This document shows positions 6,268 to 10,094 of a DNA stretch of 64,000 nucleotides, in pieces. The stretch comes from an uncultured Pseudomonadota bacterium. GTDB taxonomy: Bacteria; Pseudomonadota; Alphaproteobacteria; Rs-D84. Made by a program: the position numbers and the translations under genes. The notes under the pieces are model-generated. The model was not told the DNA's origin. It did not search any database and was given only the letters and a program-made list of their open reading frames with translations. Numbering within the stretch: position 1 is the stretch's first letter; the number at the start of each line of letters is the position of its first letter. Where the stretch lies: contig CACZUD010000003.1 of assembly GCA_902784345.1 (NCBI GenBank), positions 27,876-91,875 on the forward strand, given 5' to 3'.

Positions 6268-6317
6268 GAAAAATCATATTTTATCTGATGCTTTTTTGTG
6301 ATAGAATGAAAGCGAGA

Positions 6318-7271
6318 ATGTTAAAAAAGTATTTCACCTTTGCTGGTTTATTGGTTGTCAGCATTAATTGTTATGCGGCAGATGTTTTGCCATTAGAAGA
6401 TGCGTTACGCGCAACATATGTGGCCTGTGTGGGTATTGATGAAGAACTTTATGATTTGAAAAAAATGGCGGGTATTAATACTGCGGTTACTGCCGTCGGA
6501 ACGGGTTTGGGAATAGGCGCAGTTGCAACAGGTTTGGCCAAGGCTAAAACAGATAATGTTTTGGAACAAAAATACAAAGAAATGGAAGATTTGTCTTATG
6601 CTGCGCCGACTTATGTTGAAACGGTTGAAGCAGAAGAATTTTTAGCCAGTGTCAACAATCGTTTAAATAATAAAACTTTTTCAGAAAATATAGCTGTAAA
6701 AGATGAACGTCAGGCAGAAATAGACAAATTAGAGGCTAAAAGCAAAAAGTTAGGTAATTGGCGTACCGGATTGTTGGCAGGAAATACTGTTACTAATATC
6801 GCAGGTGCTGTAATTGCTGGAAATAATAAAGTGAAAAAGAGTTTGCAAGAACAAATAGATGATTGCAAATTGTCTGTCAAAAAATTGCAAGATTCGATAA
6901 TCGTGTCAAAACTGGAAGGTCATGATGTTACCGAAGCAAAACAAATACAATCTGTATGTCGCGGTTTCGAATACGTTGACATCAGTAAAATAAATAATCG
7001 TGCCACAGGTGCGATGGTTTCGTCTGTTGTTGGGGCAGGAACTGGTGCTGTTGGGACAATAGTAAGCGCTGTGGCAAATTCTAACAAAGTTCGTAACGAC
7101 AACAGTGAACAAGGCCAAAAAAAAGAAAAAAATTTGAATACTGCGTCAAATGTATTGGCTGCTGGCGCCACAGTGGCATCTGCAACGGCCACTGTATTTA
7201 ACGCAACACAAATCAAAGCAATCAAAGATGTCGCAACGGTTGCCGAACAATGTTCCGAGGTGTTAAGATGA
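6318..7271 (+). CDS. hypothetical exported protein, paralog A1 (signal peptide, four Gly/Ala/Thr-rich hydrophobic segments, 4 conserved Cys)
   Basis: ORF 6288..7271. The best start gives MLKKYFTFAGLLVVSINCYA, which looks like a signal peptide. It is clearly paralogous to 8167..9132, for example KSKKLGNWRTGLLAGNTVTNIAGAVIAGNNK vs KSKNLGNWRTGLMAGTIGTNVASAILSGVNK. Both proteins end in AEQC-xx-V/L. No family recognised. Confidence 0.7.
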   Translation: MLKKYFTFAGLLVVSINCYAADVLPLEDALRATYVACVGIDEELYDLKKMAGINTAVTAVGTGLGIGAVATGLAKAKTDNVLEQKYKEMEDLSYAAPTYVETVEAEEFLASVNNRLNNKTFSENIAVKDERQAEIDKLEAKSKKLGNWRTGLLAGNTVTNIAGAVIAGNNKVKKSLQEQIDDCKLSVKKLQDSIIVSKLEGHDVTEAKQIQSVCRGFEYVDISKINNRATGAMVSSVVGAGTGAVGTIVSAVANSNKVRNDNSEQGQKKEKNLNTASNVLAAGATVASATATVFNATQIKAIKDVATVAEQCSEVLR

Positions 7272-8134
7272 AACGATCTTTTTTGATTTTTTCTATCTTG
7301 ATAAGTTTTTGTTGTTGTGGTGTCGCACGTGCGGACGGCACAGAAAAAATATACATAGATCCAAAAGTTGCGCAGAAAGTAATTGAAAAACATTTTTCAC
7401 ATGTGATAAGCGAATATTTCAGGGAATCAAAAACAAATCTTGATGATAAAAGCGTGTTGGTAAACGTTATAGATGCTTATAACCGTATGTTAAAGTTGAA
7501 TAATGGGCTGGCATCTGTTGATGGGATTGTTGGTGTTTGTGAAACGGCTTTCTCAGAATTTTATTTAATGTACGACAAAGATACCACTATTGCCGATCGT
7601 GTGAAATTGTTTAACAAAAAATGTGTGGATTTTGCTGCAGATTTATTGGCCGAAGAATCGGGATTCACAGGCAGCGATTGTCCTTATAGGGTCACTAAAG
7701 TTAATGGTTCTCAAGCTACGATAAAATATGAATTACCCGATAATTCTGGTTTTATAAGGTCTGGCGGTTCAATTGCTTGGCGCTTTTTTAATCCTGGTAA
7801 TCTGCGCGGCAGTGATTTACAGTGCACTACAATTCGCACAAAAACGAACGGGAATTTCGCGGTGTTCCCAGATGCGAAAACCGGTCGATTGGCTTTGCAC
7901 AAATTGCTGTCAGAAAATTCGTCCTATCGTGATTTAACTGTCCGAAAAGCAATATATAAATATGCCCCGCCATCACAAAATAATACTGTTGGTTATATAA
8001 ATAAATTAAGAAATGCCGGTATAAATGTTGATGCAAAATTGTCGTCTTTATCAGATTCAGAAATGACACAGCTGGAAGAAATGATAATGACAATCGAAGG
8101 TTGGAAAGTTTCAGGCACAGAAACACGTTTTTAA
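7268..8134 (+). CDS. hypothetical exported protein with a C-terminal NPGN(L/I)R-motif domain
   Basis: The start overlaps the A1 stop as ATGA (7268-7271). Signal peptide MKRSFLIFSILISFCCCGVARA. The C-terminal half reads GGSIAWRFFNPGNLRGS...NGNFAVFPDAKTGRLALHKLL...IYKYAPPSQNNTVGYINKL. From memory, this resembles an uncharacterised domain seen in phage virion-associated proteins. Confidence 0.65.
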   Translation: MKRSFLIFSILISFCCCGVARADGTEKIYIDPKVAQKVIEKHFSHVISEYFRESKTNLDDKSVLVNVIDAYNRMLKLNNGLASVDGIVGVCETAFSEFYLMYDKDTTIADRVKLFNKKCVDFAADLLAEESGFTGSDCPYRVTKVNGSQATIKYELPDNSGFIRSGGSIAWRFFNPGNLRGSDLQCTTIRTKTNGNFAVFPDAKTGRLALHKLLSENSSYRDLTVRKAIYKYAPPSQNNTVGYINKLRNAGINVDAKLSSLSDSEMTQLEEMIMTIEGWKVSGTETRF

Positions 8135-8166
8135 TTTTTTTTAATTGTATTTGTGGTATAATTTTC

Positions 8167-9132
8167 ATGATATTCAAAATGTATAAAAATTTATTTGTTT
8201 TTTTGTGCTGTTTTTTGTCGTTTGCTTCTTATGGGGCAACCGATGATTTGATTGTTGATGCCCAAGATGTTTTTAGTGCTGCTAATATAGTTTGTTCTGG
8301 CATATCTGACGAGATATCCAAGGTGTCCAATGTGTCAAAAGTAAATACAGTGGTTACCGCAGTCGGAACAGTTGCAGCAACCGGTGCACTGTATGCGGGT
8401 ATACAAAAATCACAAGAAGAAAAAGAAATAGATGAACTGGTTGAACAAATATGTGCAGCAGGTGGTTGTACACCAGAAGGCGTAGAATCAATGTCCGATG
8501 AAGATTTTTTCTATAAAGTTATGCGGCCCATGGCGCAAATTGTGGAATTAAAAGAACACTTAAAGAAATCAAAAAATTTAGGTAATTGGCGTACAGGTTT
8601 AATGGCTGGAACAATTGGTACTAACGTGGCATCGGCAATCTTGTCTGGTGTTAACAAAAACCAGTCTGATTTGATACAGCATATTCAGGCTTGTAACGAA
8701 GCAATGAGATCTGTTAATTCTGTATCTGATAAATTAAGACGTCAGGGTGTAAGCCCGTTGGAATACCCTATTGTAAAGAGGTTGGATAGTATTAAAACCT
8801 GGTGTAACAGTATTAATGTATCGGATGTAGAAAAAATAGAAAAACGAATGACTGGGGTTATGGGAACATCTATTGCGGGGGCTGTTATTGGTGTCGCAGG
8901 AACAGCAACCAGTGCGGCTGCAAATTCAGATAAATACATGGACGAAAAAAATCGTATAAATTTAACTGAACAAGAAAAGAAAAAGAAAGACAATTTAAAC
9001 ACTGCGGCAAATATAATGGCTGGTGCAAATATTGTGACTGGTGCAGTTGAAACAGGGTTAAATATATCACTGATAAATTTGACCAAGAAATTGATAAAGC
9101 AAGCCGAACAATGTGAAAAGGTTTTTGAATGA
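8167..9132 (+). CDS. hypothetical exported protein, paralog A2
   Basis: ORF 8101..9132. The likely start gives MIFKMYKNLFVFLCCFLSFASYGA. Same four hydrophobic Gly/Ala/Thr-rich segments and four aligned Cys as A1, plus one extra Cys pair (CAAGGC). Confidence 0.7.
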   Translation: MIFKMYKNLFVFLCCFLSFASYGATDDLIVDAQDVFSAANIVCSGISDEISKVSNVSKVNTVVTAVGTVAATGALYAGIQKSQEEKEIDELVEQICAAGGCTPEGVESMSDEDFFYKVMRPMAQIVELKEHLKKSKNLGNWRTGLMAGTIGTNVASAILSGVNKNQSDLIQHIQACNEAMRSVNSVSDKLRRQGVSPLEYPIVKRLDSIKTWCNSINVSDVEKIEKRMTGVMGTSIAGAVIGVAGTATSAAANSDKYMDEKNRINLTEQEKKKKDNLNTAANIMAGANIVTGAVETGLNISLINLTKKLIKQAEQCEKVFE

Positions 9133-10094
9133 AAAAATACATAATAACATCTTTGTTGGCTCTGGTTCATGTCGTTGCTGTTGCTGCGGACCATTGTACA
9201 AATCCAGGTGAATACACCATAGACAGACGCTGTTATGTTACCGACGAACAAAAGACACAAAAACCTTATAATGCCGTAGTCATGGTTCAAGGTCATGGTG
9301 TTTGTACGGGTACGATTGTGAAAGGGGAAGATGATAAACCTTATTTGTATACGGCAAAACATTGTCTTGGTTACACCATTAAATTTAATGAAGAAGGAGA
9401 ATATGCTGCACCGATAAGTACAACAATAAAATTACAAGACGGTTCTTTTGTTAAAGCAAAACCGTATTCTGTTGGTGGTGGAAATATGGACGAAGAAAAA
9501 GACGATATAGCACGGGACGAAAACGATTGGGGAGTATTCAAATTTAAAGAAGAAGACGAAGAAAAATTAAAAAGTATTGCGGTTGAAAAAAGTACAGAAA
9601 AATTAGATCCAGATTCATATATGTTTGCCGATATTAATACACGTGTTGTAGGATATGGAACTTTAAAAATAATGAGTGACAAAGAGATAAAAAATCTTAA
9701 AAAAGCGTATATAAAATATTTAAAAGAAAATAAAATATCGTATTCTGATGGCGGTATTATAGATGACGCGATTTACACAGAAAATAAATATGCTGATAAG
9801 TTCTTGAAAGAAGAGGATGTGTTTACTGACGAAGAGAATTTGAAAGTGTCTGAATGTCTGTATGGCGCATACGGGGGACGTGGTTGTCAGGGATGGGGTG
9901 GTAATTCTGGTGGACCTGTTTTTGATACCGCTAACAAGATAATGGCGATCGTAACAAAAGGTGGATTGTATATTGCTGGGGGGCATAATCACGCCACCAT
10001 GATAAAGGGGTTAAAACAAAGTATCAAAATAAATGATATAAATTTATCCCCGTTGCCCCAACCAAATAAAAACGCAACATCGGTACAACAATAA
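9129..10094 (+). CDS. exported trypsin-like (S1 family) serine protease
   Basis: The start overlaps the A2 stop as ATGA (9129-9132). Signal peptide. His motif LYTAKHCL and Ser motif CQGWGGNSGGPVFD (GDSGGP-like). Confidence 0.7.
   Translation: MKKYIITSLLALVHVVAVAADHCTNPGEYTIDRRCYVTDEQKTQKPYNAVVMVQGHGVCTGTIVKGEDDKPYLYTAKHCLGYTIKFNEEGEYAAPISTTIKLQDGSFVKAKPYSVGGGNMDEEKDDIARDENDWGVFKFKEEDEEKLKSIAVEKSTEKLDPDSYMFADINTRVVGYGTLKIMSDKEIKNLKKAYIKYLKENKISYSDGGIIDDAIYTENKYADKFLKEEDVFTDEENLKVSECLYGAYGGRGCQGWGGNSGGPVFDTANKIMAIVTKGGLYIAGGHNHATMIKGLKQSIKINDINLSPLPQPNKNATSVQQ

Follow-up and report, generated by a model that had tools for sequence, protein, structure and literature searches.

What is the function of two paralogous Gly/Ala/Thr-rich exported proteins of no recognised family, when the gene of each overlaps, by stop and start codon, the gene of an exported enzyme-like partner? 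This question is raised by a four-gene cluster in the window analysed here, a stretch of 64,000 nucleotides (nt) of contig CACZUD010000003.1 (assembly GCA_902784345.1) from an uncultured alphaproteobacterium of the Rs-D84 lineage. The cluster consists of a lineage-specific module of two genes from Candidatus Enterousia, present twice in tandem; in this module a gene for a glycine-zipper protein, hereafter A (in the window the paralogs A1 and A2), is followed by a gene for its cargo. We propose, with a probability of about one half, that A could act as a membrane helper dedicated to a polymorphic exported cargo. The four open reading frames (ORFs), A1, B, A2 and protease, lie on the same (plus) strand with gyrA and a MerR-family gene upstream, and carry the following features.

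6318..7271, plus strand: A1, a glycine-zipper protein of 317 amino acids (aa), A1-type subfamily (ORF).
6477..6539, plus strand: A1 zipper segment 1, residues 54-74, with conserved G61, T62, G67, A68 and G72; Kyte-Doolittle hydropathy (KD) 1.56; predicted local distance difference test score (pLDDT) below 50.
6756..6824, plus strand: A1 zipper segment 2, residues 147-169, with G151, G155, T159 and G163 at i+4; KD 1.13; the invariant KSKKLGNWR motif stands just before it.
7002..7076, plus strand: A1 zipper segment 3, residues 229-253, with G231, S235, G239, G243 and G246; KD 1.56.
7134..7202, plus strand: A1 zipper segment 4, residues 273-295, with the conserved LNTAxN...AT..NA; KD 1.28; a Lys-rich loop precedes it.
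7268..7271, plus strand: ATGA stop/start overlap of A1 and B, read directly.
7268..8134, plus strand: B, a predicted exported cargo of 288 aa (ORF), with a signal peptide, the shared N-terminal 'A1-cargo' domain and a hydrolase domain.
7340..7654, plus strand: N-terminal helical domain of B, residues ~25-129, common to the N-termini of large cargos.
7760..8131, plus strand: C-terminal Enc34/PHA02564-type (T7 gp16-N-like) domain of B, with NPGNLR (7790-7807), Y232, Y243 (7994-7996) and the putative catalytic E277 (8096-8098).
8167..9132, plus strand: A2, paralog of A1, A2-type subfamily, 321 aa, or 317 aa if the start is at 8179 as in the database gene call.
9129..9132, plus strand: ATGA stop/start overlap of A2 and the protease gene, read directly.
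9129..10094, plus strand: S1 trypsin-like protease, 321 aa, with the triad codons H78 (9360-9362), D133 (9525-9527) and S260 (9906-9908).

The four ORFs stand as first described, direct reading confirmed both ATGA junctions, and a Shine-Dalgarno-like GAGG for B (7257-7260) lies within the conserved C-terminal codons of A1. All four proteins begin with an N-terminus that has K/R, a hydrophobic run and an AxA-like site; a signal peptide is called throughout this work from these features plus a crude heuristic, and on this feature basis the exported nature earlier assigned to all four is upheld.

The coupling of A to an exported partner extends beyond the window. Eighty loci were taken from species-representative genomes, out of 294 matches, all of them gut or rumen Alphaproteobacteria/Candidatus Enterousia metagenome-assembled genomes (MAGs); with 79 additional loci from metagenomes and some obtained by exact look-up, the total came to 174 loci, or 1.65 Mb. 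They hold 186 A ORFs (139 A1-type and 47 A2-type), 162 of them evaluable, and a downstream ORF starts at -4 (140), at -1 (16) or at most 20 nt from the A stop in 159 of these 162. In 156/162 the A gene runs 4 or 1 nt into the gene behind it, far more often than chance would give, and a signal-peptide-like N-terminus was called by the heuristic in 159/159 partners. The first-pass annotation had suspected a carrier-plus-exported-enzyme arrangement and suggested a gene-neighbourhood analysis; A genes are indeed generally followed by an exported partner, of variable type, and the idea holds well outside the window. Seven MAGs among the 80 loci fetched carry two modules each, and a module can be up to ~6.5 kb long. 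At the window locus the order gyrA-MerR-A1-B is conserved among relatives, and the A2-protease pair is absent from a relative with a 72% identical A1 and present in closer ones; this pair is a separate conserved sub-module, which was not visible in the first-pass annotation.

While the helper is conserved, the cargos are swapped. They fall into classes of 89, 28, 22, 6, 5, 3 and 2 members plus four singletons: 89 large cargos (358-1813 aa) and 22 B-like proteins occur exclusively behind A1-type genes, 21 of the 28 trypsin-like proteases stand behind A2-type genes and are the partner of 21/32 A2-type genes, and several small classes gave no family match. Coverage profiles of 54 large cargos indicate ~550 N-terminal residues in common and complete divergence beyond. 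The common N-part has 18-30 Cys (4.6 per 100 aa) and is followed by a hydrophobic cluster (KD up to 2.4), and the C-part has 0.53 Cys per 100 aa. Some short A1-type cargos (L082, L033; L numbers designate sampled loci) end in a Tlde1/YkuD domain, and the envelope-directed enzymes among the cargos include the Enc34-type hydrolase, Tlde1/YkuD and S1 proteases with an intact triad.

The link between B and the large cargos lies in the N-terminal domain, which hhalign aligns with the large-cargo N-termini at 97.7% probability (E 1.9e-12), the aligned B residues 1-129 including the signal peptide. A hidden Markov model (HMM) of this domain, built from the mature B residues 19-125 only, found 111 ORFs in the sampled loci, 110 of them directly behind an A gene and one behind a broken A gene; the domain is present in 110/127 A1-type partners and in 0/32 A2-type partners. 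B is, by this profile comparison, a short representative of a large and polymorphic family of cargos with a common N-domain, which had also escaped the first-pass annotation.

Some further features of the large cargos were observed. Their C-parts (e.g. L029 9287-13045, L045, L044) have low-complexity TDAARAAN/ASDAANAT repeats between domains and mostly no family match; the zinc-protease motif HEFGH occurs in one group, and a J-domain-like stretch in L063. Just past the hydrophobic hairpin there is a conserved Cys pair (QCKDEEC, RCKKRDC; ~500-515 in the L004 cargo, ~640-650 in the L029 cargo), and a disulfide within this pair, if formed, would bring the chain back to the oxidising side. At L015 (6829-7939) the A gene is split in two ORFs, as a frameshift or pseudogene, next to an intact gene for a 1108-aa cargo. 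An A-like module inside the large cargos, suspected from an AEQC motif, was rejected, as hhalign aligns the signal peptides only.

Based on the 1:1 coupling, the conserved helper with swapped cargos and the restriction of the N-domain to places beside A, we consider A a cargo-dedicated partner that may serve in export, retention or delivery, and the architecture is that of polymorphic effector systems with a dedicated helper. The transport steps that follow are deduced from gene arrangement and sequence features. First, A and cargo would both cross the inner membrane via Sec, made at a ratio of ~1:1. Second, A could oligomerise by means of its glycine zippers within one membrane of the producer envelope; we favour an N-out insertion of four helices into the inner membrane, which would leave both terminal helices and the 170-226 domain periplasmic and stapled by two disulfides, predicted as C37-C312 and C183-C214, over the alternative that A inserts in the outer membrane like MafA, Wza or SlyB. 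Third, the periplasmic face of A would bind its own cargo, in the A1-type through the shared N-domain, keep it export-competent and harmless to the producer wall, and then hand it over for surface display or release, possibly through the secretin that some genomes encode directly upstream of A. The enzymes so delivered from the window would be B, as a wall hydrolase of muramidase/glucosaminidase type, and a serine protease.

Are the A proteins themselves suited to such a role? A1 and A2 are full-length paralogs, as had been claimed, aligning end to end at 32% identity (BLASTP, E 1e-46). In an alignment of 142 sequences from both subfamilies C37, C183, C214 and C312 (A1 numbering) are invariant, together with the SK.LGNWRTG motif (SKKLGNWRTGL in A1) and several Gly, Thr and Asn of the four segments, which confirms the four aligned Cys and the four Gly/Ala/Thr-rich segments noticed at first as conserved properties of the family. 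Small residues in these Gly/Ala/Ser/Thr-rich segments are spaced i/i+4, e.g. G151-G155-T159-G163 and G231-S235-G239-G243, which is the glycine-zipper pattern. In a four-segment topology all invariant Cys fall in three 'out' regions, and the flanks have 0.20-0.27 K+R per residue on the 'in' side versus 0.08-0.19 on the 'out' side. Of the two readings first offered, a cleaved signal plus an inner-membrane protein with four transmembrane segments and a soluble glycine-zipper protein that inserts into membranes, the sidedness of the Cys and the K+R bias fit the first, in an N-out four-segment topology, whereas the weak hydrophobicity and the failure of AlphaFold to place the segments count against it; either may apply. 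A has no lipobox: the pattern [LVI][ASTVI][GAS]C is absent, the signal ends in an AxA-type site, and Cys in the signal region is not conserved in the alignment.

The part of A that varies is the charged helical stretch between HS1 and HS2, ~65 to ~350 aa among relatives, which resembles a stalk of adjustable length. Four relatives (P0393, P0404, P0414, P0416) reach 571-639 aa with ~350 versus ~70 aa between segments 1 and 2, and three of them have no N-terminal signal peptide as called. Their reading as enzyme fusions was dismissed, as the weak Patatin and IFT57 matches are noise and the length is expanded helix.

The A family is large and nameless. A1 has more than 1767 homologs, all unnamed, and A2 has 898, none with a real Pfam domain, and an exhaustive profile search gave 456 A clusters at 50% identity. 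Candidate known families for A1 and A2 from Pfam, NCBIfam, PHROGs and PADLOC were sub-threshold noise only (P5CR_dimer, ThyD); A1, A2 and B have no family in Pfam, NCBIfam or PADLOC; no Pfam Gly-zipper family matched A at E up to 1; and neither a PDB sequence search nor tblastn against phages returned anything for A. That no family is recognisable for A1 and A2, as stated at the outset, is borne out by all these searches. The structural check then suggested, AlphaFold plus Foldseek, gave an all-helical A1 model (AlphaFold2, mean pLDDT 66, confident away from the zippers with up to 93 at residues 180-220) with no significant match in the PDB or in the viral library BFVD. Its top-ranked Foldseek entries are the ClyA-family alpha-pore-forming toxins MakA, SmhB, AhlB, YaxA and ClyA (best E 0.15, template modelling (TM) scores 0.16-0.29); given the poor model, we take this ranking as no more than a lead.

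The predicted activity of B is clearer. B has 38 homologs and is modelled by AlphaFold2 at a mean pLDDT of 82, its hydrolase domain (residues ~165-288) at 84-98. The family profile (37 relatives) matches Gp29 (PDB 9VVP, 9vvp_L, residues 4-112) with E 3.1e-19 and the Enc34 endolysin's catalytic domain (7Q47) with E 2.8e-8, and the B model matches the lysozyme-like fold of 7q47_A in Foldseek with E 2.1e-4, probability 1.00, a target-normalised TM score of 0.53 and 27% identity over 131 columns. PHROG matches of the domain include endolysin (2e-12), tape-measure (9e-11) and also tail-injection transglycosylase, and tblastn finds phage genes annotated as endolysin or 'internal virion protein with endolysin domain'. 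In the Enc34 endolysin, Glu131 is catalytic, with Tyr95 and the aromatic Trp79 as further key residues (PMC8943055). In the B family Y243 is invariant and Y232 and E277 are conserved in at least 90%; in the alignments Y232 corresponds to Enc34 Trp79, Y243 to Tyr95 and E277 to Gp29 Glu112, and E277 sits 34 residues past Y243 (36 in Enc34), the Enc34 alignment itself ending two residues before Glu131. Because the profile, fold and PHROG matches agree and E277, Y243 and Y232 stand at matching places, B is very probably an active peptidoglycan glycosidase, and the proposal that its NPGNLR domain is a peptidoglycan-hydrolase domain is well supported by sequence and model. A literature search on the Gp29 entry 9VVP found no relevant paper.

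The partner of A2 passes Pfam Trypsin (24.4 bits versus a cut-off of 20.6), and at least 18/19 of its relatives retain H78, D133 and S260; the original description of an exported trypsin-like protease coupled to A2 by ATGA holds. A PDB sequence search found no close relative of this protease. Past the A2-protease pair, some loci have additional exported trypsin-like paralogs with no A of their own (L007 ~7111-8070, L091 10715-11575, L093 9900-10805), and a single A helper may serve several cargos.

The surroundings of the cluster in the window add the following features.

6239..6267, plus strand: terminator-like hairpin and T-run, AAAACACCGG-N6-CCGGTGTTTT then Ts, 3' of the MerR-family gene; a consensus match only.
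10133-10207, minus strand: tRNA-Glu (CUC), 38 nt past the protease stop.
10302-10775, minus strand: 157-aa ORF between tRNA-Glu and tRNA-Gln.
11086-11159, minus strand: tRNA-Gln (UUG).
11218-11676, minus strand: NADAR-family gene, beyond tRNA-Gln.

The hairpin would mark the start boundary of the A1 transcription unit, separating it from the MerR gene. The 33-nt spacer between B and A2 (8135-8166) contains TGGTATAAT at 8153-8161, an extended -10-like motif, from which A2 and the protease may have a promoter of their own; at the position of this spacer the relatives L007 and L087 have an additional ORF of 111 aa that lacks a signal peptide. The stretch from B to the MarR-TolC-like-RND efflux genes varies in content: the window has A2-protease, the two tRNAs, the 157-aa ORF and NADAR, and among the relatives compared over this stretch (L001/L008, L007 and L087) L001 has an HD-domain gene and others, and L087 a glycosyltransferase and DUF5662. 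The adjacency to tRNA-Glu noted in the first-pass annotation is real, on the opposite strand, but incidental, as orthologous loci have different neighbours. A mobile island at tRNA-Glu was likewise rejected: the GC (guanine plus cytosine) content is like that of the surroundings, orthologous loci lack a tRNA neighbour, and no integrase ORF is nearby.

In other genomes, too, the modules are dispersed among housekeeping genes rather than gathered in islands. A genes directly follow a TcpQ-secretin pair in six or seven loci, as an apparent TcpQ-secretin-A-cargo operon (L089 5390-9925, L108, L110, L115, L155, L171) in which a TcpQ-like gene precedes the secretin gene and A starts within a few bases of the secretin stop; the secretins there are 86-92% identical, and the A genes are of either subfamily. 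A2-protease pairs directly follow a LysM-LysM-M23 peptidase gene in ~15 loci (L091 6268-9949, L093 6609-9898 and ~13 others, L100, L102-L107, L109, L113, L114, L122, L124), a block that also holds the PBP2, RecJ, LolA and TatBC genes, and A2 may thereby be linked to the cell's own wall machinery. Slam/SlipAM-like genes (TPR + DUF560) occur within a few kb of some A2 loci (L091 16249-16957, L093 12246-13538, L055, L099).

How far does the helper proposal hold? Several observations weigh against it. The tie between A and cargo consists of adjacency and coupling, from which we infer that A binds or moves its cargo. The shared N-domain is lacking in the proteases and several small cargo classes, so that cargo recognition must differ there, and some loci have additional cargo-like paralogs without their own A. 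The segments of A are marginally hydrophobic (Kyte-Doolittle 1.1-1.56, summed Hessa +3 to +6), therefore membrane integration in the producer is uncertain, and all the zipper segments of the A1 model have a pLDDT below 50. For the outer-membrane variant, we know of no pathway that inserts a helical non-lipoprotein into the outer membrane, and the link to the secretin is confined to a handful of related genomes. On the cargo side, recognisable toxin domains are few in the large-cargo C-termini; a Pfam match was obtained for 6/60 C-parts (DnaJ-like, DUF6782 metallopeptidase, Kdo-kinase-like, DUF7626). The window has no immunity gene, since A2 follows B and a tRNA follows the protease, and a tightly linked small ORF after the cargo is found in a minority of ~80 loci, many having housekeeping or opposite-strand genes there instead. 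With toxin domains and immunity genes both scarce, 'effector' is itself an interpretive label.

Among the other explanations, the one that survives best, although we hold it unlikely, is a binary toxin, in which released A would insert its zippers into a target membrane, bacterial or eukaryotic, as a pore or translocon for the partner enzyme, on the model of the alpha-pore-forming toxins, of anthrax PA with LF/EF or of glycine-zipper-mediated effector entry. The marginal hydrophobicity that troubles an integral A is typical of soluble-then-inserted proteins, and the 1:1 coupling and common cargo N-domain would fit as well; glycine zippers drive the membrane translocation of Tde1, a type VI secretion system (T6SS) effector, and the killing by Cdz, and the large cargos, in which a hydrophobic hairpin separates the Cys-rich N-part from the Cys-poor C-part, are AB-toxin-like. 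The top Foldseek entries for A are all of the ClyA family, though non-significant, and a best E of 0.15 with TM scores of 0.2-0.3 from a low-confidence model argues little for kinship. Such a toxin would, however, leave the exit of A and cargo from the diderm producer unexplained, and the placement of all four Cys and the K+R bias agree with a four-segment topology that is fixed in the producer.

It is less probable still that the modules are housekeeping devices of the envelope, in which A would anchor or regulate B, as an autolysin of the cell itself, along with the periplasmic protease, in the service of wall turnover, division or the assembly of envelope machines. The placement of A2-protease pairs behind the LysM-LysM-M23 gene and near PBP2, LolA and TatC in ~15 loci speaks for it, as do the lack of an immunity gene after B or the protease in the window and in most loci, and the location of the modules among housekeeping genes at a GC content like the surroundings. 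However, 89 large cargos with unrelated C-termini and several modules per genome of less than 1 Mb would remain unexplained, the cargo domains are of kinds that phage virions and T6SS effectors use on foreign walls, and at the window locus close relatives differ in having or lacking the A2-protease pair.

Equally improbable, in our estimate, is a role for A as a periplasmic chaperone or immunity-like inhibitor that masks the cargo and has no part in its transport. Equimolar co-translation and co-export would suit it, and so would the passage of wall-degrading cargos through the producer periplasm without a separate immunity gene; but one A type (55-60% identity) goes with catalytically unrelated cargos, hence it is no active-site-specific immunity protein, and four conserved zipper segments would be unexplained in a soluble chaperone. 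The holin/endolysin or type 10-like logic first suggested, in which A would form a pore giving the hydrolase access to the wall, with the cargo freed by local lysis, draws on the endolysin-type domain of B, the membrane-tethered endolysin of Enc34 itself (PMC8943055) and the several hydrophobic helices of A, but we regard it as highly improbable, as A, which is ~300 aa long, bears a signal peptide and has four invariant Cys compatible with disulfides in the periplasm, is unlike holins and has no PHROG holin match, every cargo has its own signal-peptide-like N-terminus, and most cargos are not wall hydrolases.

Should A be a membrane helper dedicated to its cargo, what would follow? The A family, like the cargo N-domain and the obligate pairing of the two, is undescribed; B and the protease add new members to enzyme kinds already known. 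Literature searches covering Enterousia, Rs-D84 and glycine-zipper secretion turned up no account of the A family. We tentatively suggest, as a possibility well short of an expectation, that the modules form an undescribed export or delivery pathway, in which an all-helical glycine-zipper helper replaces the beta-barrel (TpsB) or lipoprotein (MafA) translocator and arms Rs-D84/Enterousia against the cells they live on, with an arsenal of wall hydrolases, proteases, L,D-transpeptidase-like enzymes and proteins longer than 1000 aa whose C-terminal domains are novel. Were A to prove a translocator or anchor specific to its cargo, it would represent a new way of moving Sec-exported proteins out of a diderm cell. 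To our knowledge, no interaction machinery has been named so far for Rs-D84/Enterousia, which are common uncultured gut and rumen bacteria and retain several modules despite genomes of less than 1 Mb. Rs-D84 genomes are mostly that small, without respiration and standard transporters, and their metabolites are predicted to come from other cells (PMC12306168). If true, the proposal would offer a way into the question of how Enterousia attach to partners or feed on them; the shared N-domain would serve as a search key for cataloguing their effectors, and the family-less C-terminal regions are a pool of unexplored enzymes or toxins.

How does the module compare with known systems? At the level of single domains, residues ~165-288 of B share profile, fold and the Glu, Tyr and aromatic residues with the Enc34 domain (PHA02564, 7Q47), the T7-like gp16 N-terminus and Gp29 (9VVP); unlike these, B, as known from sequence and model, is encoded on a bacterial chromosome, carries a Sec signal and a further N-terminal domain, and belongs to no lysis cassette or virion. 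The domain of Tlde1, a T6SS L,D-transpeptidase-like effector, occurs as a cargo C-terminus elsewhere (L082, L033) and not in the window, which suggests that anti-bacterial wall-targeting domains are used by this system, although delivery would not be by a T6SS and no Tldi-like gene was seen. Among helical membrane proteins, A resembles the ClyA family (AhlB, SmhB, MakA, YaxA) in being all-helical at ~320-360 aa, with long helices and hydrophobic membrane-inserting segments, but there is no significant match or sequence similarity, and A has four zippers and two putative disulfides. In SlyB/Pcp outer-membrane hairpins, Cdz bacteriocins and the Tde1 zipper, small-xxx-small helices pack in membranes as would those of A, which differs from all of these in being much larger and paired with a cargo.

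At the level of gene organization, the polymorphic toxin systems described by Aravind and co-workers likewise combine a conserved N-terminal region with unrelated, swapped C-terminal domains, and the N-domain here also heads short cargos; however, the cognate immunity gene directly downstream was not found for B, the protease or most loci. A classic toxin-immunity system was accordingly not adopted as the leading interpretation, immunity-like ORFs standing only sometimes behind the cargo. TpsB-TpsA and CdiB-CdiA share with A and its cargo the dedicated helper encoded upstream, N-terminal cargo recognition and polymorphic C-termini; yet TpsB is an Omp85 protein of POTRA domains and a 16-strand barrel and TpsA a beta-helix with a TPS domain, neither of which was found here by Pfam or in the all-helical A model.

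The closest parallel is MafA/MafB. MafA is an oligomeric 34-kDa protein of the outer membrane, not a beta-barrel, and is needed for the outer-membrane passage and surface exposure of the Sec-exported polymorphic MafB (PMC7738311); it recognises MafB through the N-terminal DUF1020, and in E. coli it is the sole neisserial protein required (Arenas et al. 2020, PMC7738311). In both cases the cargo gene is directly preceded by a helper gene of ~310-320 codons, both products have Sec-type signals, the helper is not a beta-barrel, the cargo joins a conserved N-domain to a polymorphic C-terminus, and several divergent pairs occur per genome. The differences, drawn from published descriptions of MafA, are that MafA is a lipoprotein of mixed alpha/beta structure, while A lacks a lipobox and is predicted all-helical with zippers; that B and five large cargos have a different N-domain, with no DUF1020 or other Pfam family in it at E up to 0.01; and that a MafI-like immunity gene, a feature of the Maf system, is lacking at most A loci. 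Since A fails the lipobox, DUF1020 and Omp85 features, it would work like these systems rather than be a member of them, and the best reading is that the A-cargo logic would be functionally like that of MafA/MafB or TpsB/TpsA and unrelated to either in sequence features.

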